Source of the DNA: Candidatus Falkowbacteria bacterium
GTDB lineage: Bacteria; Patescibacteriota; Patescibacteriia; CAIXNZ01
Assembly (NCBI GenBank): GCA_963774955.1
Contig: CAVZGV010000004.1
Coordinates: 67,522 to 131,521, forward strand
Direction: 5' to 3'
Length of the DNA: 64,000 nucleotides
Shown: one piece after another, positions 7,151-58,876 of the stretch
Layout of the letters: the number at the start of each line of letters is the position of its first letter
Numbering within the stretch: position 1 is the first letter of the stretch
The notes under the pieces: generated by a model
Database searches by the model: none
What the model was told of the DNA's origin: nothing
What the model saw: only the letters and a program-made list of their open reading frames with translations
Made by a program: the position numbers and the translations under genes

Positions 7151-7243
7151 GCGCCGCCATCGTCTAGTGGTTAGCCTGTCCGCCTCTGGCGGAGACACCA
7201 GGTTTTTCCGCCAAAGGCGGATCCGCCTCCGGCGGACATCCTG
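7151..7243 (+). pseudogene. 5' portion (positions 1-43) of tRNA-Glu interrupted by two REP-like palindromic insertions
   Basis: GCGCCGCCATCGTCTAGTGGTTAG + insert + GACACCAGGTTTT + TCCGCCAAAGGCGGATCCGCCTCCGGCGGA + CATCCTG, compared with intact copy at 7516. Confidence 0.7.
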
Positions 7244-7255: not shown

Positions 7256-7510
7256 ATGTATTATTTATATATTTTACTAAGCTTAAAAGATTCAGGTTAT
7301 TATATTGGAATAAGCGATAACCCGGAGAAAAGACTGCTTGAACATAACCAAGGTAAAACAAAATCCATAAAAAGCAGGATCCCATTTGAATTAAAATATA
7401 AAGAGGCATATAGTACTAAAACTGAAGCAAGAAAAAGAGAAATTTTATTAAAGAAAAATTATCAGATTCGCAAGGAATTACTTAATAAAATTGGATTTAA
7501 TCTTAAATAA
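7256..7510 (+). CDS. small GIY-YIG nuclease family protein inserted in the tRNA-Glu locus
   Basis: YYLYILLSLKDSGYYIGISDNPEKRLLEHNQG (GIY-YIG plus R..EHN catalytic motif), 84 aa. Confidence 0.75.
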   Translation: MYYLYILLSLKDSGYYIGISDNPEKRLLEHNQGKTKSIKSRIPFELKYKEAYSTKTEARKREILLKKNYQIRKELLNKIGFNLK

Positions 7511-7515
7511 ACCAC

Positions 7516-7587
7516 GCCGCCATCGTCTAGTGGTTAGGACACCAGGTTTTCATCCTGGTAACAGGGGTTCGATTCCCCTTGGCGGTA
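7516..7587 (+). tRNA. tRNA-Glu (anticodon TTC)
   Basis: manual fold: acceptor GCCGCCA/TGGCGGT, D-arm GTCTAGTGGTTAGGAC, anticodon stem CCAGG/CCTGG with loop TTTTCAT, T-arm AGGGGTTCGATTCCCCT; no encoded CCA. Confidence 0.8.
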
Positions 7588-8056
7588 CTAGAGCAAAAAT
7601 CACTTCTATCGCAGAGGTGTTTTTTGTTATATAAACTGTTTGATAATTTTTATTATTTAAGGTTTTTCCGCCAAAGGCGGACCCGCCTCAGGCGGGCATC
7701 CTGGTAACAGGGGTTCGATTCCCCTTGGCGGTACTAGAGCAAAAATCACTTCTATCACAGAGGTGTTTTTTGTTATATAAACTGTTTGATAATTTTTATT
7801 ATTTAAGGTTTTTCCGCCAAAGGCGGACCCGCCTCAGGCGGGCATCCTGGTAACAGGGGTTCGATTCCCCTTGGCGGTACTAGAGCAAAAATCACTTCTA
7901 TCGCAGAGGTGTTTTTTGTTATATAAACTGTTTGATAATTTTTATTATTTAAGGTTTTTCCGCCAAAGGCGGACCCGCCTCAGGCGGGCATCCTGGTAAC
8001 AGGGGTTCGCCTGCCCGCCGTAGCTTGAGCGAAGGCGGGATTCCCCTTGGCGGTAC
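7588..8056 (+). repeat. tandem repeat, 146-bp unit x about 3.4; each unit is a tRNA-Glu 3' half with a REP-like hairpin doublet in the anticodon loop plus a 73-bp spacer
   Basis: units start 7661, 7807, 7953 with 1-2 substitutions; last unit also has a hairpin insertion in the T-loop (8010-8039). Confidence 0.85.
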
Positions 8057-12828: not shown

Positions 12829-12840
12829 AGGAGGACTGTC

Positions 12841-13446
12841 ATGAGAATCGAAGAGTACGCGAAATTGATAAGGACAGGACAGACAACGAAAAATCCTGTC
12901 ACGGGAATCTGCGGCCGAATAATTCGCGGCCAAAAACCGTCAGATTTTACCACCCTGACTGACGATCCTGAAAGAAAGATCGTCATGCTGGTGGATCCTG
13001 ACGGCCTGGCCAAATTGCTCGGCAAAACCGGATACCAAATGCTCATTGAAGTCGGCTACCAGCCGGATTACCTTGAGCATAAGGTCAAAGAAGGCAACCA
13101 ATTCAAACTGGCGGTCTTTCCCGAAGGCGGCGCTGCCCAGCTTGCGACCTGGGACAATGTCTTTGCCATGGTCAGTCAGGTCTATCCTGACATAACCTTC
13201 AGCACCCAGATCAAAAACGGCCTGAAGAAGCAAAGCTTTGACCAGATCGAAAAACAAGCCGGCTTCAAATTTCTTGAAGTGGAAAAAGCCGGAAAAAACG
13301 ATCCCCGCTTCATGACCTACAAGAAATTTAGAAATCCGGCCAGACCCTGGCCGACTTCCGCGCCTTCCTGTACTTCACCATCCATTTGCGTGAACTCTAC
13401 AGCGGCGACGGCTGGACCTATGACGACAAGGGCAATCGCGGAGTGA
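12841..13446 (+). CDS. hypothetical protein; C-terminal about 40 aa look out-of-frame (probable frameshift near 13325-13332 into the frame of the next gene)
   Basis: AGGAGG RBS; tail PARPWPTSAPSCTSPS is low complexity whereas the alternative frame from 13332 gives protein-like TLADFRAFLYFTIHLRELY and stays open to 13572. Confidence 0.35.
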   Translation: MRIEEYAKLIRTGQTTKNPVTGICGRIIRGQKPSDFTTLTDDPERKIVMLVDPDGLAKLLGKTGYQMLIEVGYQPDYLEHKVKEGNQFKLAVFPEGGAAQLATWDNVFAMVSQVYPDITFSTQIKNGLKKQSFDQIEKQAGFKFLEVEKAGKNDPRFMTYKKFRNPARPWPTSAPSCTSPSICVNSTAATAGPMTTRAIAE

Positions 13447-13571
13447 AAGAATACATCATCCCCAATCTGCCCATTGCCGACCTGGGTCCCAGCGAACTGA
13501 TCGACCTGGATATCCAACTGCCAACCGACATCAGCCCTGCCTTAAAAACAGGCAAAGAAAGGAGAACGACT

Positions 13572-14396
13572 ATGAAAAACCTGAAGATCCATATGCTGGT
13601 CATTGACCCGCAAAACGATTTCATGGACATCAATGGCGCCACCCTACCGGTGGCCGGAGCCAAAGATGACATGATCCGACTGGCGGGTCTGATCGACCGC
13701 GTCGGTCCCAAACTCGCGGACATCCATGTCACCATGGATAGCCACAGACTGCTGGACATCGCTCATCCCGCGTGGTGGGTGGACCAGAACCGGAACAACC
13801 CCGCACCCTTCACTATGATCACGGTCGACGACGTGGCCAACCGCATCTGGGTCCCGCGCAATCCCAACTTCTACGACCGCTGTCTGGCCTACGTCAAGGA
13901 ACTGAACCGCAAGGGCAACTACATGCTCTGCATCTGGCCGCCCCACTGCCTCATCGGCACCTGGGGACACAACGTATACCCCGAACTAAATGACGCTTTG
14001 CAGCTCTGGTCCGGCAAGGAATTCGCCATGGTCGACTACGTGACCAAGGGTTCCAACCCCTGGACCGAGCACTACGGCGCCATGGAAGCCGAGGTCCCGG
14101 ATCCTGAAGATCCCGGTACCCAGCTCAACACCAACTTTCTCAACATGCTGGCCGAGGCTGATATCGTCGCCATTGCAGGCGAAGCTCTCAGCCACTGCGT
14201 CAAAGCCACGGTTTCCCAGATCGCCGACAACATCGGCGAAGAGCACATCAAGAAGTTCCAGATCATCACCGATTGCACCAGCCCGGTCGGCGCCGTACCC
14301 AACGGCCCTGATTTCCCGGCCATTGCCCAGCAATGGTTGCTGGACATGCAAAAACGCGGCATGACCCTGGTCAAAGCCGACGACTTCCTGCGCTAA
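13572..14396 (+). CDS. isochorismatase-family cysteine hydrolase, nicotinamidase (PncA)-like
   Basis: MLVIDPQNDF, WPPHC, catalytic Cys context AGEALSHCV; AAAGGAG RBS before ATG 13572; frame is open upstream to 13332. Confidence 0.6.
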   Translation: MKNLKIHMLVIDPQNDFMDINGATLPVAGAKDDMIRLAGLIDRVGPKLADIHVTMDSHRLLDIAHPAWWVDQNRNNPAPFTMITVDDVANRIWVPRNPNFYDRCLAYVKELNRKGNYMLCIWPPHCLIGTWGHNVYPELNDALQLWSGKEFAMVDYVTKGSNPWTEHYGAMEAEVPDPEDPGTQLNTNFLNMLAEADIVAIAGEALSHCVKATVSQIADNIGEEHIKKFQIITDCTSPVGAVPNGPDFPAIAQQWLLDMQKRGMTLVKADDFLR

Positions 14397-16227: not shown

Positions 16228-16228
16228 G

Positions 16229-17962: not shown

Positions 17963-17975
17963 CGCCCAACGGGGG

Positions 17976-21342: not shown

Positions 21343-22128
21343 ATGAAAAAAATATTTGTACTGGCTAAAAGAGATGACCAGCCTAAATTTGTCAAAGCCA
21401 AAGAAGAAATTATCGACTGGCTGCGCCAAAAAAACTGTCTGGTTACTGAAACCAAACAAGCTGAACTTATTTTGGTCTTGGGAGGTGACGGCACCATGCT
21501 CAAAGCGATCAGACAACATGGAGTCAAAGGGATTCCGTTTTGTGGTCTGAATTTCGGCCATAAGGGCTTTTTGCTGAACGAATATAAGCGCGGAGTACTA
21601 ACCCAAATCATGAAAAACAAACTGGAGTACATCACCGCGCCTCTTCTGCAGGCCAAACTATTCAACCGCAACGGCCAGGAACTGGGTTTGATTTATGCTT
21701 TCAATGATATCTACCTGGAACGCAGTACCACCAACACCGCCAAACTGCACATCACTGTCGGACAAAAAATCCGCTTTGATCCCCTGATTGCTGATGGTGT
21801 GATTGTTTCCAGCGCAGCGGGCTCTACTAGCTACAACGCCTCAGCCGGCGGCGTAGTTGTGCCGATTGAAACCAACAGTCTGATTTTGACGGGAATTTGT
21901 CCGGCCATTTTCCACCAGTGGAAAAGCAGCCAATTGGCGGCTGACAGCACCATTACCATCACAGCCACGGAACTGGACAAGCGTCCGGTTCGTCTGGTTG
22001 CCGACGGTGAAGAAGTGAAAAACGCAGTCAAGGCTGTCATTTCCTATTCGGACCAAAAAGTCCGGATCGCTTTTGTCACCACCCAGGATTTCCGGAGCAA
22101 AGTTCTTAACCTGCAATTTCCTGAATAA
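21343..22128 (+). CDS. nadK: NAD kinase
   Basis: LVLGGDGTML (GGDG), NDIYLER, 261 aa. Confidence 0.8.
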   Translation: MKKIFVLAKRDDQPKFVKAKEEIIDWLRQKNCLVTETKQAELILVLGGDGTMLKAIRQHGVKGIPFCGLNFGHKGFLLNEYKRGVLTQIMKNKLEYITAPLLQAKLFNRNGQELGLIYAFNDIYLERSTTNTAKLHITVGQKIRFDPLIADGVIVSSAAGSTSYNASAGGVVVPIETNSLILTGICPAIFHQWKSSQLAADSTITITATELDKRPVRLVADGEEVKNAVKAVISYSDQKVRIAFVTTQDFRSKVLNLQFPE

Positions 22129-22140
22129 AGGAGGCTACAA

Positions 22141-23376
22141 ATGGCTATCATCTCTTCCCTGCTGGACACTGACTTTTACAAGTTCACCATGGGTCAACTG
22201 GCTTTTCTCTTTTATCCGGACATCGAGGTGGAATACACCTTCAAGTGTCGGAATAAGAATTTCCGGCTGGCTGACTTTATCAACCAGGATCGGCTCCGCG
22301 AGGAACTGATCGCCACCAGAGCCCTCAAGTTCAAGCACAGCGAGTTGCACTACCTGCGCGGCACCAATGAATATGCGGAACGCATGTTCAGCGAACCCTG
22401 GCTGGAGTTCCTGAAAAAAATGGACATGCCTGAATTTGAACTCCTGTCTGTCCAAGACGGCAACATTGTCTTGAGCTTCCGCGGTAAATGGCCCGAAGCC
22501 ATTTACTGGGAAACTCTGGCCCTGTCCATCATCAATGAGCTTTATTATGAAGCTCTGATGAAAAACATGACTGCTTTCAAAAAAGACGTCATTCTCAGCC
22601 AAGGCAAAATCCGGCTGGACGAAAAGATCAAAATGCTCAAAACCAGACCTGATGTTACTTTCATCGAGTTCGGCACCAGACGCAGATTTTCCCGGGACTG
22701 GCAGGACTATGTGGTTCAGGCTCTCAAGTCTGAACTTAAGCCTAGCCAGTTCCTCGGAACATCCAACACCTACCTGGCCATGAAGCATGACCTGATTCCC
22801 ATGGGCACTTCGGCTCACGAAGTGTACATGGCCTATTCCGGCATTTATCATGGCAGCGACGAGGAAATCCTCGCATCCCACAACAAGTCTCTGCAGGAAT
22901 GGTGGGATCTGTACGGCTTCGGCTTATCCGTTGCCCTGACAGATACTTACGGCTCGGACTTTTTCTTCCGCGACATGACAGAAGAGCAAGCCCGCAAATG
23001 GAAAGGCCTGCGTCAGGATTCCGGCGATCCTATCGTCTTTGGTGAAAAAGCCATCAAGTTCTACGAGAACTATGGCATTGATCCCAAGACCAAGCTGCTC
23101 ATCTTTTCCGATGGCCTGGATATCCAGACGATTTTCAAGATTGCTGATCACTTCAAGGACCTGATCAAGGTGTCCTTTGGCTGGGGCACGAACCTCACCA
23201 ACGACTTAGGCCTCAAGCCTTTGTCCATGGTCATCAAGCTGACCAAATCCAACGGCCATGGCACAGTCAAACTTTCCGACAATCTGGCCAAAGCCATGGG
23301 CTCTGACTATGATGTCGAACGTTTCAAACGCATCTTCGGCCACACCGTGACCGACAGAATTGATACGAAATACTAA
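22141..23376 (+). CDS. pncB: nicotinate phosphoribosyltransferase
   Basis: N-terminal SLLDTDFYKFTMGQ signature of PncB family, 411 aa. Confidence 0.75.
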   Translation: MAIISSLLDTDFYKFTMGQLAFLFYPDIEVEYTFKCRNKNFRLADFINQDRLREELIATRALKFKHSELHYLRGTNEYAERMFSEPWLEFLKKMDMPEFELLSVQDGNIVLSFRGKWPEAIYWETLALSIINELYYEALMKNMTAFKKDVILSQGKIRLDEKIKMLKTRPDVTFIEFGTRRRFSRDWQDYVVQALKSELKPSQFLGTSNTYLAMKHDLIPMGTSAHEVYMAYSGIYHGSDEEILASHNKSLQEWWDLYGFGLSVALTDTYGSDFFFRDMTEEQARKWKGLRQDSGDPIVFGEKAIKFYENYGIDPKTKLLIFSDGLDIQTIFKIADHFKDLIKVSFGWGTNLTNDLGLKPLSMVIKLTKSNGHGTVKLSDNLAKAMGSDYDVERFKRIFGHTVTDRIDTKY

Positions 23377-23424
23377 AAACCTGGCCCTCCGTATTTCATC
23401 AACGTTAGCGAACTTCGGAGGGCC

Positions 23425-23504
23425 CTCTACTCAAATTATTTTTAGGTGAACCAAAATCCAGAATCTATAATCTAGAATCTAGAATCCAAAAAAATAATTT
23501 AGGC
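23425..23504. repeat. intergenic inverted-repeat module, family A copy 1
   Basis: CTACTCAAATTATTTTTAGG ... (AATCTAGA)n ... AAAAAATAATTTAGG; preceded by terminator hairpin 23383-23424. Confidence 0.8.
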
Positions 23505-23542
23505 GGAGAAAGTTCTTTTCAAAAAAACAAAAGGAGAAAATC

Positions 23543-24694
23543 ATGCAAGTAGTTTACGCAGGTGAAAAAATTCCAACCAGCTGGAAAAAATCCATTTTCC
23601 TGGCTGGCCCAACTCCCCGAGACAAAAATGTTGTCTCATGGAGACCTGAAGCTTTGGCCATCTTACAGGCCAAAGGTTATGATGGCGTAATTTTCGCTCC
23701 GGAAAATCGGGACGGTCAGTCCAGACCCAATTATAATGACCAAGTCGAATGGGAAAACGAAGGACTTAACCGCACCGATGTTATTTTGTTCTGGGTACCG
23801 CGGGAACTGAAAACCATGCCCGCCTTTACCACTAATGTGGAATTCGGCGAATGGTTCAAATCCGGCAAAATCGTTTTGGGCTTTCCCCAGGACGCGCCCA
23901 ACATGAGATATCTGGAAAGCAAGGCCAAAGCTTTCAACGTTTCCTGCGCAGATACGCTGGAGGCAACGATTGATCTGGCCTTGAACATGCTCGGCGCCGG
24001 CGCGGATAGAAATAACGGAGAAACCTATGTGCCTTTACACATCTGGCAGACACCGGCTTTCCAAAACTGGTACCAGAATCTCAAAGCAGCCGGTAACCGG
24101 CTGGACTCAGCTCGAGTCGAGTGGGTTTTCCGCGTTGGTCCCAAGAAAAACTTTGTTTTTCTCTGGGTCCTGTATGTTGATGTTTTCATTACCAAGGAAA
24201 ACCGCCACAAAACCAACGAAGTCATTCTGGCTCGCCCGGACATTGCCACCATCCTGATGTACAAACCCGCAAAAATTTTGCTGGAAACTGAGATTGTCCT
24301 GATCCGGGAATTTCGCAGTCCGGTTTCCAACTCTGACGGCTATGTCTGGGAAATCCCCGGCGGTTCATCTTTCAAACCGAAAGAAGATCCCAACAAACTC
24401 GCAGCGCATGAAGCTTTTGAAGAAACCGGGATGGAAATTCTAGCCGAACGTTTCAAAGCAATCGATGCCAGGCAACTCTGCGCCACACTGTCCACTCACA
24501 AGGCTCATCTGTTTGCCGTGGAAGTAACCGATGATGAAATCAATTGGTTACGCCAGCAGCAAGGAGTTGCTCACGGCGTAATCGAAGACACGGAACGCAC
24601 TTACGTGGAAATAAAAACCCTTCAAGAAATTCTGGCTCAGAATCTGGTTGACTGGAGCATACTCGGCATGATCCTCTCAGTCTTAATAAAATAA
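23543..24694 (+). CDS. fusion of nucleoside 2-deoxyribosyltransferase-like domain and NUDIX hydrolase
   Basis: KSIFLAGP Rossmann-like N-terminus; C-terminal Nudix box GGSSFKPKEDPNKLAAHEAFEETGM. Confidence 0.55.
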   Translation: MQVVYAGEKIPTSWKKSIFLAGPTPRDKNVVSWRPEALAILQAKGYDGVIFAPENRDGQSRPNYNDQVEWENEGLNRTDVILFWVPRELKTMPAFTTNVEFGEWFKSGKIVLGFPQDAPNMRYLESKAKAFNVSCADTLEATIDLALNMLGAGADRNNGETYVPLHIWQTPAFQNWYQNLKAAGNRLDSARVEWVFRVGPKKNFVFLWVLYVDVFITKENRHKTNEVILARPDIATILMYKPAKILLETEIVLIREFRSPVSNSDGYVWEIPGGSSFKPKEDPNKLAAHEAFEETGMEILAERFKAIDARQLCATLSTHKAHLFAVEVTDDEINWLRQQQGVAHGVIEDTERTYVEIKTLQEILAQNLVDWSILGMILSVLIK

Positions 24695-24737
24695 ACTCTT
24701 TAGGCCCAGTACCGAGCTTTGCTCTGGTGCTGGGCTA

Positions 24738-24813
24738 TCTACTCAAATTATTTTTGTTAATCAAAATCTAAAATCCATAATCTAGAATCTATTATCTACA
24801 AAAATAATTTAAG
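24738..24813. repeat. intergenic inverted-repeat module, family A copy 2
   Basis: CTACTCAAATTATTTTTG ... AATCTA repeats ... CAAAAATAATTTAAG; terminator hairpin 24703-24735. Confidence 0.8.
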
Positions 24814-24861
24814 TAGGGATAGTTCCTTAAATTTTAAAGAAACACAAAAGGAGAAATAAAG

Positions 24862-25680
24862 ATGACCATGCCGAGAGATTTAATTTTGGTTCGCCACGGA
24901 CAGTCCGAAGGCAACCTGGTAATTATGCAATTGGAAAAGCAAGGACTGCCAGTGCCGGATGAATATTACCGCAAGCACACAGCTCACTGGCGTCTGACCA
25001 GCAAAGGAGTACAGCAGGCGGAAATAGCAGGACAATGGCTGCGGCAGAACTTGGTTACCGAATTTGACCGCTACTATGTTTCTGACTATGTCAGGGCCAA
25101 AGAAACAGCCGCCTTACTCGGGCTGAAACAGGCTTCCTGGGGCATCAACATTTACCTTGGCGAACGCAACTGGGGTATTATGGATCGATATACTGAAGAA
25201 GAAAGAAACAAAATCTTTGAGATTGATTTAGTAACCAAGAAGATCCACCCCTTTTACTGGACCCCGCCCCGCGGCGAATCCATGGTTCAGCTGTGCCTGC
25301 GTCTGGAAAAAGTCCTGGAAACTCTGCATCGCGAATGCGCTGATGGCCGGGTTATTCTAGTCTGTCACGGCGAGGTAATGTGGGGCTTTCGGATCATTCT
25401 GGAAAGAATTCCTCCGGACAAATACGTGAAACTTGATGAATCCAAAAATCCTTTTGACAGGATTCACAACTGCCAAATTCTGCACTACTCGAGAAAAAAT
25501 CCCGGCACTGGTCAGCTTTCTGACCATCTCGACTGGATGAGGTCTCTTTGTCCGACGGATCTGAGTTTATCTGCCAATGCCTGGCAAGAAATTAGCCGAC
25601 CGCGGTTTACCAACGAACAGCTGCTGAAACATGCAGCCAAATTTCCTCGGGTAATCGATAATCAGGAGGAAAAATCATGA
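24862..25680 (+). CDS. histidine phosphatase superfamily (phosphoglycerate mutase-like) protein
   Basis: LILVRHGQSEGN (RHG motif). Confidence 0.7.
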   Translation: MTMPRDLILVRHGQSEGNLVIMQLEKQGLPVPDEYYRKHTAHWRLTSKGVQQAEIAGQWLRQNLVTEFDRYYVSDYVRAKETAALLGLKQASWGINIYLGERNWGIMDRYTEEERNKIFEIDLVTKKIHPFYWTPPRGESMVQLCLRLEKVLETLHRECADGRVILVCHGEVMWGFRIILERIPPDKYVKLDESKNPFDRIHNCQILHYSRKNPGTGQLSDHLDWMRSLCPTDLSLSANAWQEISRPRFTNEQLLKHAAKFPRVIDNQEEKS

Positions 25681-26639
25681 TTGACAAAATCGCTCACGGC
25701 CAGGGCCAGATGAGAGCCCAGTCTTTTTCCATTCAGGTTTCTGACCGGGAAAAATGCAATGCGGGCTGCAAATTTTGCATCTCGCGCACCACGCCCGGAG
25801 ATTCCCAAAGAATTCTGATTCCAAAGATGCAAGAGACAAAACCCAAGCTCTGCGACTTTGACCGCCTTAAAATCGGCCTGAATTATGCCAGAAGTCTGGG
25901 TGCAACTCATGCTATCCTGACTGGCAAGGCTGATCCGCTTCAGGAGCCGACCGAAGAGCTGTGCAAATTGCTTCAGCTCTGCCGGGAATATCTGCCGCTC
26001 GCGGATATGCACACTAATGGATTACTCCTCCATCCTGAATTCAATAGAGGAAATGACCTGACCCAGCTCAAACAAGCGGGTTTAACCATGATCACTATTT
26101 CTCTGGCATCCTTCAACGAGCAGCAGAACTTTGAACTGATGCGCATCAAAAAAAGCGCCGCTGACCTGATTAAACAAGCAGCGGATCTTGGCCTGCTGGT
26201 GCGCTGCTCCCTGGTCGTCAATGCTCAGGGAGTCGCTGATGTGGCAGGCGTGATTGATTATTGCAGACAAGCCGGTGAGCTCGGCGCTCATATGGTCGTG
26301 GTTCGCGAAGTCTGGGTGCCTGAAATCTATGGCGAGCGCAACCTGGGAGTCTACGATTGGAACAAAACCAATAAGATCAACATCAAGCCGATCCAGGACC
26401 ATTTCATTGAAATTTGCCATAAGAAAAATGATTTTGGCCTATGCCAACTTGATCCTTTGCCATGGGGCACTCCGGTCTTTGGCATGGCCGGTGTCTTTAC
26501 CAATCAAGATCACGGGGTAAACATCACCTTTGCCTGTTGTGACGAAGGCACCACCGGTTCGGTCATCAAGTCTATCGTGCACAAACCCAACGGCCACGGT
26601 TACGGTAATTGGGATCATGGTGGTCGTATCCTTTATTAA
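25677..26639 (+). CDS. radical SAM enzyme of unknown specificity
   Basis: CNAGCKFC (Cx3Cx2C); AGGAGG RBS; ATGA overlap with upstream gene. Confidence 0.6.
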   Translation: MIDKIAHGQGQMRAQSFSIQVSDREKCNAGCKFCISRTTPGDSQRILIPKMQETKPKLCDFDRLKIGLNYARSLGATHAILTGKADPLQEPTEELCKLLQLCREYLPLADMHTNGLLLHPEFNRGNDLTQLKQAGLTMITISLASFNEQQNFELMRIKKSAADLIKQAADLGLLVRCSLVVNAQGVADVAGVIDYCRQAGELGAHMVVVREVWVPEIYGERNLGVYDWNKTNKINIKPIQDHFIEICHKKNDFGLCQLDPLPWGTPVFGMAGVFTNQDHGVNITFACCDEGTTGSVIKSIVHKPNGHGYGNWDHGGRILY

Positions 26640-26676
26640 ATTTTTAGGGCGAATCCCGCGACGCAGGATTCGCCCC

Positions 26677-26778
26677 TCTACTCAAATTATTTTTAGGTAA
26701 TCAAAATCTAGAATCTATGCCGCGTAGCGGCATCCCGCTTCGCGGGAAAACCTAAAATCTAACTAAAAATAATTTAGG
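26677..26778. repeat. intergenic inverted-repeat module, family A copy 3 (with extra GC hairpins in the centre)
   Basis: CTACTCAAATTATTTTTAGG ... gccgcgtagcggc / cccgcttcgcggg ... CTAAAAATAATTTAGG. Confidence 0.8.
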
Positions 26779-26851
26779 CGGAGACAGTTCTTTTCAAAAA
26801 CATTTAACCAAGTCGCCGTCGCTAAAGCTATGGCGACTAAAGGAGAAAAAA

Positions 26852-27859
26852 ATGAGCAGAGACAAAGTAAGAGCCATGTTTTTGGGAGTGGCCATCGGCG
26901 ATGCCCTGGGCATGCCAGTGGAAACAAAAAACTTTTTGGAAATCGAAACTGAGCATGGCCGCGTAACAGATTATCTGGATCCCGGTAACCATAAATGGTT
27001 CAAAGGGTTTCAGCGCGGACAATGGACTGATGATACCCAAGCCACCTTGGCTGTGCTCACATCCCTGATTATTCAAGGCAAAATTGACTTGGCTGATATG
27101 GCTCAGAGACAGATAGACACAATGAACGAATGTTCAAAGGGCTGGGGACGCAGCACCAAAAACTCTCTTCGTGCAGTTGAACGCGGGGTTCACTGGCTGA
27201 AATCAGGTAATCCCCAGGGAGCCGGCAATGGCGTGGCCATGAAAATCGCGCCGCTGGCAGCCTATCTGGCCGCTCCCAATACCGATCATGCCATTGCCGA
27301 AAATGTTGCCGAACTGGCACTGATGACCCATCAGACTGACATGGCGGTACTTTCCGGCTTTGTCCAAATGCACGCTTTGTCATATTGCCTCAATTGCGTC
27401 GACGAAAATCGCCCTTTTTCCGCCGAAGGTCTGTTACAGTATGTTCTGCGCTACGGCAAAGCAGTCAAAGTCATGCTGCGCGAAAAAAAATATCAGCTGA
27501 CCTATCTGCAGGAGGATTTCCTCGGCCGCTTTGCCGCAATGATGTGTCTGTTTGATGAATTCAAGCAGATGACACCGGCCAAATTGGCCGAATGTTACGG
27601 CGGCGCTGACTGCTATGTTTACAATTCGCTGCCATTCACCATTGCCATGTTCCTGCGCAATCCGCATTCCATTGAAACTCTTTACGACACGGTCAATGCC
27701 GGCGGCGACACAGATACCAATGGTTCCATGGTCGCTGCTCTGCTCGGCAGCCTTAACGGCACCAAGATTTTCCCAGCGCATCTGATTGACGGCCTGTGGC
27801 AGAAAGACCGGATTCTCCAGGTCGCCAATGACTTCTGCGACCGTTTCCAAATCAAATAA
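26852..27859 (+). CDS. ADP-ribosylglycohydrolase (ARH/DraG family)
   Basis: AIGDALGMPVE and AGGDTDTNGSMVAALLGS signatures. Confidence 0.8.
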   Translation: MSRDKVRAMFLGVAIGDALGMPVETKNFLEIETEHGRVTDYLDPGNHKWFKGFQRGQWTDDTQATLAVLTSLIIQGKIDLADMAQRQIDTMNECSKGWGRSTKNSLRAVERGVHWLKSGNPQGAGNGVAMKIAPLAAYLAAPNTDHAIAENVAELALMTHQTDMAVLSGFVQMHALSYCLNCVDENRPFSAEGLLQYVLRYGKAVKVMLREKKYQLTYLQEDFLGRFAAMMCLFDEFKQMTPAKLAECYGGADCYVYNSLPFTIAMFLRNPHSIETLYDTVNAGGDTDTNGSMVAALLGSLNGTKIFPAHLIDGLWQKDRILQVANDFCDRFQIK

Positions 27860-27900
27860 ACTCCCGAGGCGTGAATTCCTAAATTCAGGAGTTCACGCCT

Positions 27901-27973
27901 CCTAACTCAAATTATTGTTCCGCCCAAAAATCTAAAATCTAGAACCTAAAATCCAACAATAATTTAAGTTAGG
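27901..27973. repeat. intergenic inverted-repeat module, family A copy 4
   Basis: CCTAACTCAAATTATTGTT ... AACAATAATTTAAGTTAGG (19-bp inverted repeat) flanking AATCTA repeats; terminator 27866-27901. Confidence 0.8.
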
Positions 27974-28022
27974 AGGGAAAGTCCCTTAACAATTTTAAAA
28001 AATACCAATAGGAGGTTTTCAG

Positions 28023-28934
28023 ATGAACAAGCAAATCCTGTACTACTGCCCGCAAATGGCTGACCTGGCGCCAAAAATCAAAACGCTTTGTCCTGATCTT
28101 GTTTTGGGAAACATTTCCTGGGACTTTTTCCCTGATGGTTTTCCCAACATCAAAATCAACGACGTCAAAATGGCCAAAAACGCAGACGTTATCTTTCTGG
28201 CCAGTCTGGACAGCCCGGCTGAAATTTTCAATCAGCTGAGCGTAATCTATGCCCTGCCCCGCTACCTGGTAAAATCGCTCAAAGTGATTTTGCCCTTTTA
28301 CCCGACTGGAACCATGGAAAGAATTGAAACTCAAGGTGAGATTGCCACGGCCATGACCTTGGCACGGATGCTGTCAGCAACGCCAATGACGCAAAGTGGC
28401 CCAACACAAATCATCATCTATGACATCCATGCACTCGGAGAACAGTTTTATTTTTCCGATCAGGTGCTAGTCAGACTGGAAACAGTGGCTGATTCTTTGA
28501 TCGAACTTTTTCCCAAAGATGAATACGATCTGGCTTTCCCTGATGACGGCGCTTACAAACGCTTTGCCCGTTATTTCCCGGGTTATCCCGAGATCATCTG
28601 CCAAAAAGTTCGCGATGGTGATAAGCGCATCATTCAGATCAAAGAAGGAAAGCCTCGGGGCAGAAAAATTGTCATGATTGACGATTTGATCATGTCCGGC
28701 GGAACACTTCTCGAATGCGCCCAAAAATTGCTTGAAGCCGGAGCCCTTGAAGTTCTGGCCTATGCCACCCATCCGGTTTTCCCGGTCAACTCCTGGAAAC
28801 GGTTCATAACCAGCGACATTCTTAAAGTCGTGGTGACTGATTCCTGCCCCAAAACCGTGGCCACAATCAAAGGTCAGCCGAAATTTCAGATAATTTCTCT
28901 GGCCGACAAAATCGCCAACATCATAAACGAGTAG
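28023..28934 (+). CDS. prs: ribose-phosphate pyrophosphokinase (PRPP synthetase) family protein with divergent flexible loop
   Basis: DIHALGEQFYF, PRPP motif VMIDDLIMSGGTL, YATHPVF; the loop region PFYPTGTMERIE differs from canonical PYFGYARQDR. Confidence 0.7.
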   Translation: MNKQILYYCPQMADLAPKIKTLCPDLVLGNISWDFFPDGFPNIKINDVKMAKNADVIFLASLDSPAEIFNQLSVIYALPRYLVKSLKVILPFYPTGTMERIETQGEIATAMTLARMLSATPMTQSGPTQIIIYDIHALGEQFYFSDQVLVRLETVADSLIELFPKDEYDLAFPDDGAYKRFARYFPGYPEIICQKVRDGDKRIIQIKEGKPRGRKIVMIDDLIMSGGTLLECAQKLLEAGALEVLAYATHPVFPVNSWKRFITSDILKVVVTDSCPKTVATIKGQPKFQIISLADKIANIINE

Positions 28935-28947
28935 AAAGGAGTTCAAG

Positions 28948-30915
28948 ATGGGACTGATCAAAATTGGCATGGCTAATATCGACACCACTGTCGGTGCCGT
29001 AGCTTCCAACACTGACAAAATCATCGCCTGTCTCGAAAAGATGTGCGCTGAAAAAGTCACTATTGCCTGTTTCCAGGAACAAGTAATTGGCGGTTATCCT
29101 GCCGAAGACTGGATTCAGTGGCCTGATTTCGTCGCCGCTCAACAGCGCGAACTATACAAAATCATTGCCTTGAGCGGAAAACGGAAATTTCCTGCCGTGA
29201 TCACCCTGGGAGTTACCATGAAGGTTGAAAACAACCTCTATAACTGCCAGGCGGTAATTGCTGATGGCATGTTGATCGGTATTGTGCCCAAGGAAAAACT
29301 GCCGACCTATGGAGTGTTCTACGAAGGTCGAACTTTTTCTCCCGGTATCCCTTATGATTACCGACAAATTGCCACCGGAACATTAGTCAACTTCGGCGAC
29401 ATGATTTTTAAGGCTTCTTTCGGCACTTTTGCCGTGGAAGTCTGTGAGGATATTTGGACACCGGACGGCCCCATGAAACGCCGAGCCTACAGCGGGGCCG
29501 AACTGATCATCAATGCTTCTGCATCCCCTTTCCGCGTCGGCGTGGTTAACACCCGGAAGGAAATGCTGGCCACCAGATCGGCTGACAATCAGGCCACCGT
29601 GGTCTATGTCAACCAGTATGGAGGCAATGATTCCCTGGTCTTTGACGGCGGCGGTTACATTTACCAAAATGGCCGCTGCCTGCTGGAAGCACCCCGCTGG
29701 CAATCGGGCATCTCCTACCAAACTGTGGATCTGAATGTGACTGCCACCTGTCGTCAAACAAACACCACCTGGCGGATGGATCAGCAGGAATTTCTCAAAA
29801 CCAACCAGCCGGTACAAACGATTCCGTGCAATTGTAACCGAGTTCTCAATGAGGACTATGAGTATCCCAAACCCGCGAACCAGAACTTCTTCATGCCGGC
29901 AGTGAAACCGAAAATCGACGAACGCGCCGAATATTTCGAAAATCTGATCGAAGCCATGATTACCGGGCTGGACGGTTACTATGCAAAAACCAATGCTTTC
30001 AAGGGCATTGGCATCGCTCTGTCCGGCGGCAAGGATTCCGTACTAACGCTGATGATTGCCTGGCTTTACCGCCAAAAAATTTATCAGAGAGCAAAAGAAG
30101 CAAACAACTACGCCAAAGTCAGCTTTGCTGATTTTATCCGCTGTTTCTCCATGCCGAGCAAGTTCAATTCGGATACAACCAAGAATATTTCCCGCCTGCT
30201 GTGCGAGGAACTTGAGGTCAGCCTGATTGAACTTTCGATTGAAGATGCATTTGAGCGTGAAGTCGCCGCCACAAAAAAAATGCTGGGACTGCCTCAGACA
30301 GCTGAGCTGAAAAAAATCACCCTGCAAAACATTCAGGCCAGAATCCGCGGCCAGCGCATGCTCAATTGGGCCAATGAAACCAATGGTATGTGGTTGCAAA
30401 CCGGCAACATGTCCGAGAAGGCAGTGGGATACACCACAGTCGGCGGAGACATGATGGGAGCTTACTCCCTGATTTCCAATCTGCCCAAGTCTGTCATCAT
30501 TGAACTGATTGACTATCTGACTGAAAGGTATCAGTTTGAAGGGCTGAAGCTGTTGCAACAGACCAAGCCTTCGGCTGAACTGGCACCTGACCAGGAAGAT
30601 GAAAAGGATTTGATGCCCTTCCCGATTTTAGATGCCTGTATGCATCTCTTTGTCGGGGAAAAGATGAATCCCAGTCAGATGCTGAAAGTCCTCAAAAGCA
30701 TGTGGACTGAAGAGGAACTGAGAGCCATGACTCCGGGTTATGCCCCTGACATTCTCAAGGCATGGGTTAACAAATTCATCACTCTGTTCCATCGCTCCAT
30801 TTTCAAATGGGTTCTCACCCCCGAAGGTGTCCATTTGGGAAAGGAAGATCTGGATCGTGAACGAGCCACGCAACTGCCGGTAGTAACATCTACCGAATGG
30901 TTGCCTAAGCTTTAA
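28948..30915 (+). CDS. nadE: glutamine-dependent NAD+ synthetase (CN-hydrolase plus NAD synthase domains)
   Basis: 655 aa; PP-loop SGGKDS in C-terminal domain; N-terminal nitrilase-like domain. Confidence 0.8.
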   Translation: MGLIKIGMANIDTTVGAVASNTDKIIACLEKMCAEKVTIACFQEQVIGGYPAEDWIQWPDFVAAQQRELYKIIALSGKRKFPAVITLGVTMKVENNLYNCQAVIADGMLIGIVPKEKLPTYGVFYEGRTFSPGIPYDYRQIATGTLVNFGDMIFKASFGTFAVEVCEDIWTPDGPMKRRAYSGAELIINASASPFRVGVVNTRKEMLATRSADNQATVVYVNQYGGNDSLVFDGGGYIYQNGRCLLEAPRWQSGISYQTVDLNVTATCRQTNTTWRMDQQEFLKTNQPVQTIPCNCNRVLNEDYEYPKPANQNFFMPAVKPKIDERAEYFENLIEAMITGLDGYYAKTNAFKGIGIALSGGKDSVLTLMIAWLYRQKIYQRAKEANNYAKVSFADFIRCFSMPSKFNSDTTKNISRLLCEELEVSLIELSIEDAFEREVAATKKMLGLPQTAELKKITLQNIQARIRGQRMLNWANETNGMWLQTGNMSEKAVGYTTVGGDMMGAYSLISNLPKSVIIELIDYLTERYQFEGLKLLQQTKPSAELAPDQEDEKDLMPFPILDACMHLFVGEKMNPSQMLKVLKSMWTEEELRAMTPGYAPDILKAWVNKFITLFHRSIFKWVLTPEGVHLGKEDLDRERATQLPVVTSTEWLPKL

Positions 30916-40313: not shown

Positions 40314-40395
40314 TTGGTGCGCGAGACCGGAATCGCCCGCCAGAGGGCGGGTCCGCCTTCGGCGGAACCCCTCTGCTAGTATTTTCCCGCGCACA
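40314..40395. repeat. composite REP-like palindromic element (nested hairpins)
   Basis: outer inverted repeat GTGCGCG/CGCGCAC; inner CGCCCGCCAGAGGGCGGG and TCCGCCTTCGGCGGA. Confidence 0.7.
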
Positions 40396-40528
40396 CAAAA
40401 TAATATAGCCTCCAAGCTATTCACCTATATTAACATAGATTAAAGCTTTTGTCAAGACTTACATAATTCGTGCGTTATGTTAAAATAGTCATATAATCTT
40501 TATTGAACTATTCTACTATTTGTCATAA

Positions 40529-40624
40529 GAAAAAGCCTCCTCTGTGTCATGGTGAGCTCAGTCGAACCATACACCGACGGCGCCACCCGTTCGACTATGC
40601 TCAGGGTGACAGAGGAGGCTTTTT
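40529..40624. repeat. family B imperfect palindromic element (GTCATGGTGAGC type)
   Basis: AAAAAGCCTCCTCTGT ... GTCATGGTGAGCTCAGTCGAACC ... ACAGAGGAGGCTTTTT. Confidence 0.7.
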
Positions 40625-40644
40625 CTCTTTAACCCAATTACCCA

Positions 40645-44105: not shown

Positions 44106-44177
44106 GTCCCTGTAGTTCAACGGATAGAACGAGAGACTCCTAAGCTCTAGATGGAGGTTCAATTCCTCCCGGGGACA
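44106..44177 (+). tRNA. tRNA-Arg (anticodon CCT)
   Basis: manual fold: acceptor GTCCCTG/CGGGGAC (U-G wobble), anticodon loop CTCCTAA, T-arm GGAGGTTCAATTCCTCC. Confidence 0.75.
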
Positions 44178-44185
44178 TAAGTTTC

Positions 44186-44215
44186 TCCGCCAAAGGCGGA
44201 TCCGCCTCCGGCGGA
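44186..44215. repeat. REP-like hairpin doublet inserted directly after tRNA-Arg with 16-bp flanking direct repeat
   Basis: TCCGCCAAAGGCGGATCCGCCTCCGGCGGA; flanks ctcccggggacataag at 44166-44181 and 44221-44236. Confidence 0.85.
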
Positions 44216-44236
44216 AATTTCTCCCGGGGACATAAG

Positions 44237-44330
44237 CCTATATAAGAGCCTTTAGCTCATCTGGCCTTAGTCGGCCGTAGCTCGGAGAGCAAAGGCCGAT
44301 AGAGTGCTTCCATGGCGTGTTTGCCCGCCG
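44237..44330 (+). pseudogene. degenerate 5' copy of tRNA-Ala with GC hairpin insertion
   Basis: agagcctttagctcatctgg + insertion + tagagtgcttccatggcgtg, compared with intact tRNA-Ala. Confidence 0.55.
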
Positions 44331-47267: not shown

Positions 47268-47325
47268 CTTTTTTTCCTCCTTGTCCGCCTTTGGCGAACG
47301 GGTTGAGGGTGGATGTTTCAGTGGA

Positions 47326-51464: not shown

Positions 51465-52538
51465 TTATACAACCTTTTCAAATATAATAATTGAACGCCA
51501 GACAAATTGTTTTTCCCTAAAGTATAAAAGATCTTCTTGATTTGTTGGCTGAAAGCCCAACTTTTCAATTTGCGTTAAAATTTCAATTTTACTTTGATGA
51601 TTTCTGAGATTATAAATCGGGAAAACCATAACCACTTTACCGCCCTTGACCAAGACTTTACTGAATTGCACAAAAGCCTCTAAATATAAGGACTCCAGTA
51701 TTTGAACAGTATTTTCAATCTGTTCCCGACTTTCATTGCCTCTGACCGGCGGCCCCAAAAACGGTTCGGTTACAATCGCCTCAATTGAATTAGCCTTAAA
51801 TTTTAAACTCAAATCCTTAACATCCAACTTCATTACTTTAGACTTTTCCGCCGAAGGCGGATCCGCCTCTGGCGGAAGACTTTCTACTTTAGACTTATTT
51901 AAAAGCCAGTCCAAATTTTTCTTTGTATCCTCAATCGCCCTGTCACTGTTATCCGTTCCAATTAAATTTCTATAACCCAAAACAATCGCTTCCTGCAAAA
52001 TCGTGCCTGAACCGCAAAACGGATCCAGAATCACAGCTTCAGGTTTAACCTGCGCCAAATTAATCATCATGCGCGCCAGTTTTGGCGGCAACATGCCGGA
52101 AACCTGATCCCGGCCAGGGCGGCTAAAATCACGACTGCCAAATTCTTCAAAAGCCTGCACAGCCAAGGTCTGGCCCATGGTAACGATTCCCTGATCAATA
52201 AAAAAACAAAGTTCAGCTCCGTTTTTAAGTAATTTATTCTTGGCTACAATAACTGAAGATAATTCCGGTTCTTTGGCCACCACATAACGGGAACTGATAT
52301 TTTTTTCATCGCGTAAAATTGATTTGATTTCCATGGCAATGGCAGTCATCTTTTTTTGAATAGCCTGAATATTCATCTTTGGTGATAGGGGATAGAAGCT
52401 AAAGCCAAAATAAAACTTGGCTTGTTCAAATTTAACCAGCTTAAAGAAATTATCCTGAAATTCATCAAGGTCCCCCATAGTCGCCAAAATCTTGCCGATC
52501 TTAACTGTCCCGCCCAAACGGCTGTTTAGCCAATTCAA
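51465..52538 (-). CDS. class I SAM-dependent RNA methyltransferase (THUMP-type; UPF0020/RlmL/Trm11-like) carrying an in-frame REP insertion
   Basis: DPFCGSGTILQEA motif I and TEPF motif IV; N-terminal part appears split off into ORF 52501..52719. Confidence 0.6.
   Translation of the reverse strand: MNWLNSRLGGTVKIGKILATMGDLDEFQDNFFKLVKFEQAKFYFGFSFYPLSPKMNIQAIQKKMTAIAMEIKSILRDEKNISSRYVVAKEPELSSVIVAKNKLLKNGAELCFFIDQGIVTMGQTLAVQAFEEFGSRDFSRPGRDQVSGMLPPKLARMMINLAQVKPEAVILDPFCGSGTILQEAIVLGYRNLIGTDNSDRAIEDTKKNLDWLLNKSKVESLPPEADPPSAEKSKVMKLDVKDLSLKFKANSIEAIVTEPFLGPPVRGNESREQIENTVQILESLYLEAFVQFSKVLVKGGKVVMVFPIYNLRNHQSKIEILTQIEKLGFQPTNQEDLLYFREKQFVWRSIIIFEKVV
51847..51875. repeat. REP-like hairpin doublet inserted in frame within methyltransferase CDS
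   Basis: TCCGCCGAAGGCGGATCCGCCTCTGGCGGA flanked by imperfect 12-bp direct repeat tactttag(g)actt; encodes ESLPPEADPPSAEKS between duplicated KSKV. Confidence 0.85.
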
Positions 52539-52719
52539 TATCCAGCTCGTTCTCTGTTTCTAAAACCAAAATCCTATCATAAAACTTTATGACTTTATAA
52601 CTTATAGCTTTCGAAGCCAAGACTGCTTCGATTTCGGCTTTGGATAATATGGGGTTTTTTCCAAGAATGAAAAAATATTGCATATTGTTTATTTCTAACT
52701 TCCAAATATCAAGCATCAA
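52501..52719 (-). pseudogene. N-terminal fragment of the methyltransferase gene separated by a frame break
   Basis: ORF overlaps 51465..52538 by 38 nt in a different frame. Confidence 0.4.
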
Positions 52720-52823
52720 ATCTCAAATAAATTACAGTGATCAAATTACAAATTACAAACATTTGTTATTTATTATTTGAAATTTGAGATTTATTTGCAA
52801 TTTGGACTTTGTTATTTGTTCTT

Positions 52824-57891: not shown

Positions 57892-58716
57892 ATGCAAAGT
57901 AAAAATGATAATACATTATTCAAGGGAGCAGCTTGGTATTACGCAAATTTTAGACGTGGATATCCAGAATCTTTTTATAATCACTTAATAAAAGTTTTCA
58001 AACTTGATAAATCGTCAAGGGCACTAGATTTAGGAACTGGCACAGGTCAAATCGCAATTCCTTTATCAAAGATAGTCAAAGAAGTCGTCGCTGTTGATCC
58101 TGACGAGGAAATGCTAAACGAGGGTAATACTATCGCTAAATTAAAAGGAGTTTCAAATATTATTTGGACAAAATCACGAGCCGAGGATATATCAAATAAA
58201 TTAGGTCATTTTGATATAACGACAATGGGAGCTTCCTTTCATTGGATGGAACAAGATAAGGTACTGGAAAAAATTTACGACCTTACAAATGACCACGGAG
58301 GGGTTGTTCTAGTTTCAAATACCTCATCAATTCATAGGAATAAGGGTAATGATGCATGGAAAGAGGTTGTTTTAGCGACAATTGAAAAGTATCTTGGAAA
58401 GCAACGTAAAGCTGGTAAAGGATATTTTAAGGAACCAAATGATAGATTTGAAGATATTCTAGAGCGCTCAAAGTTTAAGGTGCTAAAAACTTTTAATGAT
58501 AGATACACTCAAGAATGGAATATTGACACTATCATTGGATTTTTATACTCGACCTCCTTTGCATCCAAACGATTCTTTGGTGACAATATTGAGAATTTTG
58601 AAAATGAATTACGTTCAAATTTGTTAAAGTTAAATAAAACCGGTAAATTTACTGAAACAGCAGTTCTAGAAGCATTACTCGGACAAAAAAACAAAAGAAA
58701 TTTGAAAATTTTTTAA
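57892..58716 (+). CDS. class I SAM-dependent methyltransferase
   Basis: motif I LDLGTGTGQIAIPLS. Confidence 0.65.
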   Translation: MQSKNDNTLFKGAAWYYANFRRGYPESFYNHLIKVFKLDKSSRALDLGTGTGQIAIPLSKIVKEVVAVDPDEEMLNEGNTIAKLKGVSNIIWTKSRAEDISNKLGHFDITTMGASFHWMEQDKVLEKIYDLTNDHGGVVLVSNTSSIHRNKGNDAWKEVVLATIEKYLGKQRKAGKGYFKEPNDRFEDILERSKFKVLKTFNDRYTQEWNIDTIIGFLYSTSFASKRFFGDNIENFENELRSNLLKLNKTGKFTETAVLEALLGQKNKRNLKIF

Positions 58717-58876
58717 AACAATCCGCCTTTGGCGGAAAAAGAAAAGGAATACATCAGCTAATACGGCGTATCTGGCTACGGCTTTTTTCAAAAACCTTCG
58801 CCCAAATAGCTGTGCAACTACAGATATGCCGAAACGTTCAGTAAAAACTAAAGGAGTTGTTCACGAGCGACTCCTC

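Follow-up and report, generated by a model that had tools for sequence, protein, structure and literature searches.

A 30-bp palindromic doublet in frame in an RNA methyltransferase gene of Candidatus Falkowbacteria, probably a solo copy of a REP-like mini-element

Repetitive extragenic palindromic (REP) sequences and their composite forms (BIME, REPIN) are GC-rich stem-loops of 20-40 bp that occur in multiple copies, are often paired, lie mostly between genes and leave no target duplication (PMC3733652). Some copies lie in frame in housekeeping or repair genes and add 10-30 residues to the product; Di Nocera et al. (2013; PMC3733652) described intragenic REPs, some of them in repair genes; dimers there encode 20-30 amino acids and are probably neutral in loops. 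Here we describe a 30-bp doublet of two hairpins that lies in frame in a methyltransferase gene, within a stretch of 64,000 nucleotides from Candidatus Falkowbacteria bacterium (hereafter the window; contig CAVZGV010000004.1, positions 67,522 to 131,521). We consider it probable that this 30-mer is a solo copy of a REP-like but untagged palindromic mini-element, which was inserted between a T and an A in a permissive loop without duplication, and for whose mobility a small GIY-YIG nuclease offers the best lead. The doublet is short, GC-rich, palindromic and multi-copy, and it inserts without target duplication, as REPs do. However, neither the window copies nor 121 others carry the GTAG/CGTC tag of REPs; its two hairpins are joined without a gap into a single, near-perfect palindrome of 30 nt; its stems recur unchanged in many phyla, whereas most REP families belong to one species or a few; no REP-associated tyrosine transposase (RAYT) has been linked to the doublet; and copies also occur in the loops of tRNA gene fragments.

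Rickettsia palindromic elements (RPEs) are inserted in frame in Rickettsia genes (PMC10969869). They resemble the doublet in being palindromic, in frame in unrelated genes and translated as extra loop peptides. The doublet works like an RPE but does not belong to that class: RPEs are ~100-150 bp long, occur in Rickettsia only and encode a conserved peptide, whereas the doublet has 30 bp and variable loop bases and occurs in other phyla. Nor is it a miniature inverted-repeat transposable element, as these derivatives of DDE transposons have terminal inverted repeats and a fixed-length target duplication and usually exceed 50 bp, and no target duplication was found here or in 123 copies elsewhere. 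The doublet has a T-rich 5΄ flank, with a two-sided signal (T(–2) together with A(+2) in 81/125 copies); hairpin elements of the IS200/IS605 type (palindrome-associated transposable elements) are accompanied by TnpA and insert next to a specific motif of 4-5 nt, on its downstream (3΄) side only. GC clusters and double-hairpin elements of fungal mitochondria are GC-rich elements in AT-rich genomes, and occur in coding and RNA genes, sometimes in frame; they differ in being organellar, in that several classes leave short target repeats, and in sequence. Cyanobacterial genomes are reportedly rich in tandem heptamers (STRR, short tandemly repeated repetitive sequences), and Elhai and colleagues are reported to have described there, in 2008, mobile hairpin repeats of 21-27 nt with no known enzyme (SDR4-6, small dispersed repeats); sequence and phyla differ from those of the doublet. 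In the open-access literature we found no description of the doublet core sequence, of its in-frame spread in the candidate phyla radiation (CPR) and Omnitrophota, or of the nuclease and tRNA-fragment cassette presented below.

The methyltransferase locus comprises the following features (open reading frame, ORF; S-adenosylmethionine, SAM; slashes in sequences mark junctions).

51465..52538, minus strand: main ORF of the host gene, 357 aa, Trm11/UPF0020-type SAM-dependent RNA methyltransferase
51834..51846, minus strand: native heptamer-tract DNA on the gene-downstream side, tactttagacttt; holds the 12-nt copy 51834-51845, encodes KSKV before MKLDV, and is present in the orthologues L001 and L002
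51847..51876, no strand assigned: inserted 30-bp module, two abutting hairpins
51847-51861: hairpin 1 of the insert, TCCGCC-GAA-GGCGGA
51862-51876: hairpin 2 of the insert, TCCGCC-TCT-GGCGGA
51877..51896, minus strand: native heptamer-tract DNA on the gene-upstream side, agactttctactttagactt; holds the 12-nt copy 51885-51896 and encodes KSKVESL
52501..52683, minus strand: N-terminal ~60 codons of the host gene (MQYFFILGKNP...), in another frame and ending in a stop

The 30-mer TCCGCCGAAGGCGGATCCGCCTCTGGCGGA consists of TCCGCCGAAGGCGGA followed by TCCGCCTCTGGCGGA, and dinucleotide-preserving shuffles gave an expectation of 0 matches. Its centre is the 14-nt palindrome AGGCGGATCCGCCT, and single-stranded folding of the region (–13.3 kcal/mol, z = –3.5) gives a pair of neighbouring hairpins, each with a 6-bp stem and a 3-nt loop. 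On the minus (coding) strand, the insert supplies codons for PPEADPPSAE, residues 222-231 of the 357-aa ORF, which reads through the doublet in frame (...KSKVESLPPEADPPSAEKSKVMKLDV... / ...NKSKVESLPPEADPPSAEKSKVMKLDV...), in agreement with the initial annotation of a REP-like doublet in this gene. If the 30 nt are translated, peptides such as VESLPPEADPPSAEK would be expected; a window allele without them would read ...AGTCTAAAGTCT.... The 30 nt amount to 10 codons, none of them a stop in this frame, so that PPEADPPSAE simply extends the loop. The doublet peptide signature was found, in any frame, in 0/119 other listed homologues, including the closest, L006 (80% identity), and the same module occurs at non-coding sites of the window; the reading of the doublet as an insertion was thus upheld.

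We compared the insertion site codon by codon with the DNA of six orthologues. The empty sites of L001 and L002, for which an orthologue comparison had been proposed, and the filled site of the window (insert in parentheses) are as follows.

L001: AAG TCT AAA GTA GAA AGT TTA / AAG TCT AAA GTA ATG
L002: AAG TCT AAA GTA AAA AGT CTA / AAG TCT AAT GTG ATG
Window: AAG TCT AAA GTA GAA AGT CT(T CCG CCA GAG GCG GAT CCG CCT TCG GCG GA)A AAG TCT AAA GTA ATG

The filled site differs from the empty site by exactly the canonical 30-mer, which lies between T and A of AGTCT/AAAGTCT, with zero bases duplicated or lost. A 12-nt direct repeat, TACTTTAGACTT, does flank the doublet (51834-51845 and 51885-51896, 51 nt apart), but it is perfect, not imperfect as had been annotated. 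This repeat had been taken for a target duplication, giving 51 nt of insertion plus duplication and an added peptide ESLPPEADPPSAEKS plus a KSKV copy. Both copies are, however, already present in L001 and L002 at a spacing of 21 nt, and the insert therefore measures 30 nt rather than 51 and adds only the 10 residues PPEADPPSAE. The two copies are parts of a degenerate heptamer tract, (AAGTCTA)n, which reads AAGTCTA AAGTAGA AAGTCTA AAGTCTA AAGTA and has the same length in the empty-site orthologues. The flanking repeat thus proved to belong to a longer native repeat, an outcome named beforehand as refuting the duplication, and the transposition-like mechanism argued from the duplication is not supported; DDE-type transposition with target duplication is excluded. 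In distant orthologues (alignment of 25 orthologues), the loop length is constant and the residues are unrelated, for example KYQLNTNNVQVF. By parsimony, the insertion is specific to the window lineage.

The host ORF matches Pfam PF01170 (UPF0020/RMKL-like methyltransferase; E = 2.8e-13, 50.5 bits against a gathering cut-off of 22.3) and contains motif I, DPFCGSGT, of which D172, F174, G176, S177, G178 and T179 are invariant in the orthologue alignment. Its homologues are proteins of Patescibacteria/Parcubacteria named Trm11, RsmD-family or "DNA methyltransferase", and the nearest solved structures are those of archaeal Trm11 (6zxw, 6zxv). In an AlphaFold2 model computed from a 26-sequence alignment (mean predicted local distance difference test score, pLDDT, 77), the insert lies in a coil at residues 216-232, between helix 199-215 and strand 233-237, with pLDDT <50 at residues 217-224 and 226-230. 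In the Rossmann fold, this loop connects helix B to strand 3 and comes after the helix that follows motif I/II, and the alignment to the Trm11 structures of the Protein Data Bank breaks at residue 212. The suggestion that a structural model might place the insert in a surface loop was borne out, as the insert is predicted to lie in a disordered, low-confidence one. The same loop holds other insertions in relatives: another 30-nt doublet at the same site in L003 (AGCCGC-GAA-GCGGCT/TCCCGC-TAC-GCGGGA), a longer hairpin element with a second hairpin nested inside in L005, and GAAGTCC heptamers in L004 and L006. The loop is thus a hot spot in the family. Two further sites in the methyltransferase family carry hairpin inserts of 30 and 51 nt without duplication, of which the 51-nt one again lies in a heptamer tract. 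As to the neighbouring genes, a T4 Rnl1-type RNA ligase gene follows the methyltransferase gene in L001 (4428-5427) and L004 (4424-5563), and a tyrosine recombinase gene adjoins it instead in the window, L003 and L006.

We further searched other genomes by an exact-pattern scan (one genome per species, exact stems required, hence an ascertained sample), and found at least 120 doublet loci. According to the record titles, the matches listed comprise ~50 Patescibacteria, 19 Omnitrophota, 13 members of the PVC (Planctomycetes, Verrucomicrobia, Chlamydiae) phyla and 11 "uncultured Gammaproteobacteria"; the remainder include Ignavibacteria, Chloroflexota, Bacteroidota and others. Several non-CPR genomes carry doublets on more than one contig, and the genome of the empty-site orthologue L001 has a doublet elsewhere (L095). 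The family consensus is tT-TCCGCC-NNA-GGCGGA/TCCGCC-TNN-GGCGGA-Aa, and since the loops are NNA and TNN, the centre is the 14-nt palindrome given above. The closing pairs of the stems (T-A 218, C-G 27, C/A 7, T/G 2) indicate that stem pairing is maintained. Left flanks are rich in T and right flanks in A (consensus tTT/.../AAa): T occupies position –2 in 81% of cases (symmetrised), and T(–2) and A(+2) occur together in 81/125 copies, even at up to 70% GC. An adjacent direct repeat of k ≥ 2 was found in only 2/123 copies in other genomes, and longer nearby repeats only at copies within short tandem repeats (L055, L085, L087, L012).

Tolerated intragenic insertions had been considered rare; this did not hold, as dozens of copies lie in frame in long ORFs and intragenic REPs have been described (PMC3733652). 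Conserved genes with in-frame doublets include those for RpoC (L090), UvrC (L055), cysteine desulfurase (L087) and TatD (L085), the last from an uncultured Gammaproteobacteria metagenome-assembled genome and the others from Patescibacteria. In ORFs of at least 300 aa, the frame giving SAxGGSAxGG was used 41 times, the RRRIR-type frame 4 times and the PPxADPPxAE frame 2 times, against an expectation of 1:1:1. Such a bias implies translation of the inserts, with selection among them acting on the protein. Phage carriage as a spreading route was considered and rejected: only 1 match was found in 2.9 million viral contigs, so that a phage vector is unlikely to explain the spread. As a separate observation, the RpoC of L090 and the UvrC of L055 each contain a second GC-rich peptide stretch (e.g. 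SAKASEGKPSE in L090), which may be another insert.

The window contains 13 TCCGCCnnnGGCGGA hairpins, compared with 0.07 expected, and apart from the methyltransferase copy, 0 of its doublets lie inside an ORF. These elements and their associated features are listed below.

7179-7193: single hairpin in the 5΄ tRNA-Glu fragment 7153-7244
7207..7236, no strand assigned: sister doublet, loops AAA/TCC, between positions 35 and 36 (TTTT/CAT) in the anticodon loop of the same fragment
7256..7513, plus strand: GIY-YIG nuclease gene, 84 aa (PF01541, E = 3.4e-15), between the doublet-bearing tRNA-Glu fragment and the intact tRNA-Glu 7516-7588
7551..8009, plus strand: 146-bp tandem repeat, 3.1 copies, 99% identical; the unit is the tRNA-Glu 3΄ half, 79 bp of downstream DNA and a doublet
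7667-7696, 7813-7842 and 7959-7988: doublets of the tandem repeat, second hairpin CCCGCC..GGCGGG, at the same position between 35 and 36
26718..26747, no strand assigned: second-stem-type doublet, TGCCGC-GTA-GCGGCA/TCCCGC-TTC-GCGGGA, intergenic
40336..40366, no strand assigned: variant doublet, CCCGCC-AGAG-GGCGGG/TCCGCC-TTC-GGCGGA, intergenic, in a GC-clamped hairpin
44186..44215, no strand assigned: sister doublet identical to 7207-7236, after tRNA-Arg(CCT) 44106-44177, at the T-loop position (TTC/AATT) of a 21-bp partial tRNA copy (44216-44236)
47284-47298: imperfect single hairpin
58722..58736, no strand assigned: single hairpin TCCGCC-TTT-GGCGGA, just after ORF 57892..58716

A doublet of the 26718 type also occupies the methyltransferase site of L003, and different doublet types have therefore used the identical site. 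The AAAGTCT flank was found at none of the other window doublets, and Rfam gave no family match at any doublet. The tRNA-Arg doublet is flanked by a perfect 16-bp repeat (44166-44181 and 44221-44236), as had been noted, which extends to 21 bp with one mismatch (44161-44181 and 44216-44236); it is not a fixed-length target duplication, however, but a partial copy of the tRNA 3΄ end, from the T-loop onward. In the syntenic L003, tRNA-Arg(CCT) has neither the doublet nor the partial duplication.

Wherever a doublet stands near a tRNA gene in the window, it occupies an additional, truncated copy of that tRNA, and there the loop closest to the truncation; the three 3΄ tRNA-Glu fragments carry it between positions 35 and 36, as does the 5΄ fragment. 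We fetched homologues of the nuclease encoded at 7256..7513 regardless of doublets, and obtained 5 proteins at 13 loci, 11 of which had enough upstream DNA. In 11/11 of these informative loci, the order was a tRNA-Glu 5΄ fragment with a GC hairpin doublet, 5-18 nt of tRNA, the GIY-YIG gene and the intact tRNA-Glu, and this architecture was seen in 6/6 lineages, the window included. Two units stand in tandem in L149 and L156, some cassettes are followed by 3΄ tRNA fragments that begin with a doublet, and L158 has a different doublet at tRNA position 26 in a fragment that ends 6 nt later. The distance from the doublet to the truncated fragment end is always 3-18 nt (window 7153-8060, L146-L158, L047, L041, L070), and the doublet lies 10-75 nt upstream of the GIY-YIG start codons. 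The same design was also found at tRNA-Ser (L047, L041) and tRNA-Val (L070). In other genomes, 5/10 GIY-YIG ORFs in doublet loci lie within 200 nt of the doublet, compared with ~9% expected by position (an estimate). No gene family recurs near doublets as often as GIY-YIG, and the ORFs near 121 doublet loci include no recurrent transposase family. The arrangement looks like a homing cassette that regenerates the tRNA gene it has entered. Free-standing GIY-YIG genes in tRNA gene regions have a precedent in SegB of phage T4 (PMC2330249). SegB likewise is a small GIY-YIG gene beside tRNA genes, as in the cassette 7153-7588, but it is a phage protein, its border carries no palindromic doublet, and it makes no partial copy of a tRNA. 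A link between a GIY-YIG nuclease and dispersed solo palindromes was not found in the open-access literature.

A reading of the tRNA fragments as split tRNAs or as mini-intron-containing genes was rejected because an intact gene always adjoins. Removing the doublets in silico, followed by ARAGORN, restored one tRNA (the tRNA-Val of L070), whose acceptor stem pairs poorly by eye; the other tRNA-like contexts of doublets are truncated fragments. Two further observations concern the T-loop: the last 146-bp copy has another 30-nt hairpin, CCTGCCCGCCGTAGCTTGAGCGAAGGCGGG, in its T-loop (8010-8039), and in L147, L148 and L150 an additional insert, differing in sequence, occupies the T-loop of the 3΄ tRNA-Glu fragment.

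Taken as a solo copy of a REP-like mini-element, the methyltransferase doublet would be selfish or neutral DNA, inserted at the DNA level at a break or nick, at a T/A step in T-rich/A-rich sequence. A resident palindrome would have been copied from another locus into the break, with its stems kept paired, and this pairing could be kept either through selection or through template switching within the strand. The T/A junction, being two-sided, points to a symmetric target (TTT/AAA-like) or microhomology with the donor flanks. Persistence of the insert may reflect the permissive loop, or a frameshifted host gene no longer under selection. The 84-aa GIY-YIG nuclease is the leading candidate for the mobilising enzyme, and we infer this from the same module bounding its cassette in every sampled lineage, as REPs flank RAYT genes. 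Since GIY-YIG enzymes only cut DNA, copying would fall to host repair. A more specific proposal is that the doublet is the cognate palindrome of this nuclease family: the cassette would enter tRNA genes and restore an intact tRNA with the tRNA half that it brings along, the doublet standing at the cassette border, and the same nuclease, acting in trans at T/A steps, would seed solo doublets, including those in frame in essential genes. We hold this proposal to be possible, though less likely than not. De novo formation of the palindrome by template switching was rejected as an origin, because identical 30-mers occur at unrelated loci (7207, 44186) and across phyla, although it may still explain the stem pairing.

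Several observations weigh against the mini-element reading or its nuclease lead. GIY-YIG nucleases cut DNA and are not known to transpose it; a GIY-YIG gene adjoins only ~5/125 doublets, the more distant GIY-YIG ORFs have no doublet nearby, and the two may meet at tRNA genes through a common preference instead of a causal link. All listed doublet genomes are metagenome-assembled or single-amplified genomes, so mis-binning is possible. Of the reading frames used in the family, that of the methyltransferase insert is the rarest. Scanning metagenomes with anchors on both sides of the site yielded no conspecific allele, empty or filled, and a protein-guided metagenome scan yielded no relative above 68% identity; as no conspecific empty allele was found, the polarity (gain here or loss elsewhere) rests on parsimony. 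Finally, the host gene lacks a full-length reading frame. Orthologues have ~394 aa, and an extra T in GAATTGG at ~52530-52536 (region 52524-52542), where orthologues read GAGTGG or GATTGG, causes a +1 frameshift near codon 57 that splits the first ~57 codons from the remainder; the remaining 357 codons are intact. General frameshifting of the assembly was ruled out, since each of the three other same-strand pairs of overlapping ORFs in the window represents two separate genes, and the frameshift is an isolated event or error. Decay to a young pseudogene, expression from an internal TTG or a single sequencing error could each account for the state of the host gene, and tolerance of the insert by a working enzyme is therefore only a possibility.

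Among the alternatives, a classical REP/REPIN mechanism would have a single-stranded DNA hairpin moved by an HUH tyrosine transposase (RAYT or IS200/IS605-like) to a site 3΄ of a T-rich motif. The size, the GC-rich hairpins, the dimers, the mostly extragenic location, the lack of duplication and the T-rich 5΄ flank agree with this, intragenic REP dimers are known, and for CGTC-type REPs no transposase has been identified (PMC3733652). However, neither end of the doublet carries a GTAG or CGTC tag, and the flank signal is two-sided, where insertion 3΄ of a target should leave a one-sided one. No Y1/HUH-like family recurs in the 121 doublet loci, a weak test because RAYT genes are single-copy and need not be near, and in this genome it covered the 64 kb of the window. 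We regard such a mechanism as unlikely for the doublet.

An enzyme-free origin, by ectopic gene conversion or microhomology-templated repair between dispersed A/T-rich or heptamer tracts of which one already bears a doublet, with lesions arising from palindrome-induced breaks (SbcCD-type hairpin cleavage), is doubtful as well. The methyltransferase site is itself a heptamer tract in a window full of period-7 repeats, near-identical contexts (AAAGTC/../AAAAGTC) surround the copies of L086, L087 and L090, with others in L055 and L085, and a heptamer tract also surrounds a second hairpin of the L003 orthologue. Direct repeats of 6-15 nt, with no fixed length, flank the copies in modest excess, and the breakpoints of tRNA fragments are concentrated 3-18 nt from doublets. 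In most copies, however, a heptamer context is lacking, the other window doublets do not share the AAAGTCT flank, and this origin leaves the identical stems across phyla unexplained.

It is very unlikely that the doublet acts at the RNA level, either as a mini-intron removed from the transcript or as an mRNA-structure element for regulation or stability. Copies in tRNA loops (D, anticodon and T), as in archaeal mini-introns, the maintained stem pairing and the position of the doublet upstream of GIY-YIG start codons are in line with such a role, but the strong bias to the benign SAxGG frame in long ORFs implies translation, the doublet-bearing tRNA copies are truncated fragments beside an intact gene, no Rfam family matches, and no bacterial splicing endonuclease is known. 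A transposon-like element that made a 12-bp target-site duplication by staggered cut and fill-in is barely credible: the perfect 12-nt repeat and the 16-21-bp repeat at tRNA-Arg would fit it, but the former is native in the empty-site orthologues with a 30-nt difference only, distant orthologues share the loop length, 123 copies have no adjacent duplication, and the latter is a partial tRNA copy, as at tRNA-Glu. An assembly or sequencing artefact, or a native loop palindromic by chance, can be dismissed almost entirely: the contig is metagenome-derived and the gene frameshifted, but the module recurs in independent assemblies from many projects and platforms, including a single-cell genome, with no chance matches expected and in-frame copies in conserved genes.

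The methyltransferase locus taken singly is ordinary, and its practical result is a correction: there was no target duplication, and the host gene is possibly a fresh pseudogene. The family is of more interest than the locus, given stems that are shared between phyla, copies that lie in frame in essential genes, and a consistent partnership with the small GIY-YIG nuclease at tRNA genes. Through doublets, proteins of uncultured bacteria, RNA polymerase and UvrC among them, gain decapeptides of the SAxGGSAxGG, PPxADPPxAE or RRRIR type. Doublets can be mistaken there for lineage-specific loops, and they break tRNA detection; conversely, they amount to a natural insertion scan, showing where conserved proteins have permissive loops. 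With 30 bp, the same stems in distant phyla, no target-site duplication and no known transposase, they represent the lower size limit of mobile DNA, and the pairing of GIY-YIG with tRNA fragments is a concrete and testable candidate mechanism for moving DNA of this size. If true, the GIY-YIG reading would describe a nuclease-plus-repair route to miniature mobile DNA, parallel to RAYT/REP with a different enzyme class and common to Patescibacteria, Omnitrophota and PVC bacteria.

Some minor observations were made elsewhere in the window. Around the variant doublet, a GC-clamped stem, GGTGCGCG...CGCGCAC (40316-40397), could be a small structured RNA; the 40.3-kb hairpin gave only chance-level Rfam hits. 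A long palindrome at 40536-40625, AAAAAGCCTCCTCTGT...ACAGAGGAGGCTTTTT, has a different GC-rich element nested inside, and is probably a bidirectional terminator invaded by another hairpin family. Between 44240 and 44700 lie a tRNA-Ala pseudo-copy whose D-loop holds a 35-nt hairpin insert (44265-44299), an extra tRNA-Ala 3΄ fragment after the intact gene, and a tRNA-Val-like 5΄ fragment followed by GC-rich inserts; L003 and L002 have an intact tRNA-Val(CAC) at the equivalent position, and ARAGORN finds none in the window.

Throughout the window, period-7 short tandem repeats are unusually frequent, mostly between genes (e.g. 3986-4018, 7114-7147, 23455-23486, 24759-24791, 27927-27953, 52742-52779), with in-frame examples in the (AAGTCTA)n of the methyltransferase loop and the GAAGTCC tracts of its orthologues. 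Hairpin inserts recur inside period-7 tracts, in other phyla too (L055, L085, L086, L087). The region 12000-30000 has a GC content of 43-54%, compared with 33-42% elsewhere, contains several ORFs with no Pfam match (12841..13446, 13386..14396), and may be a foreign island.

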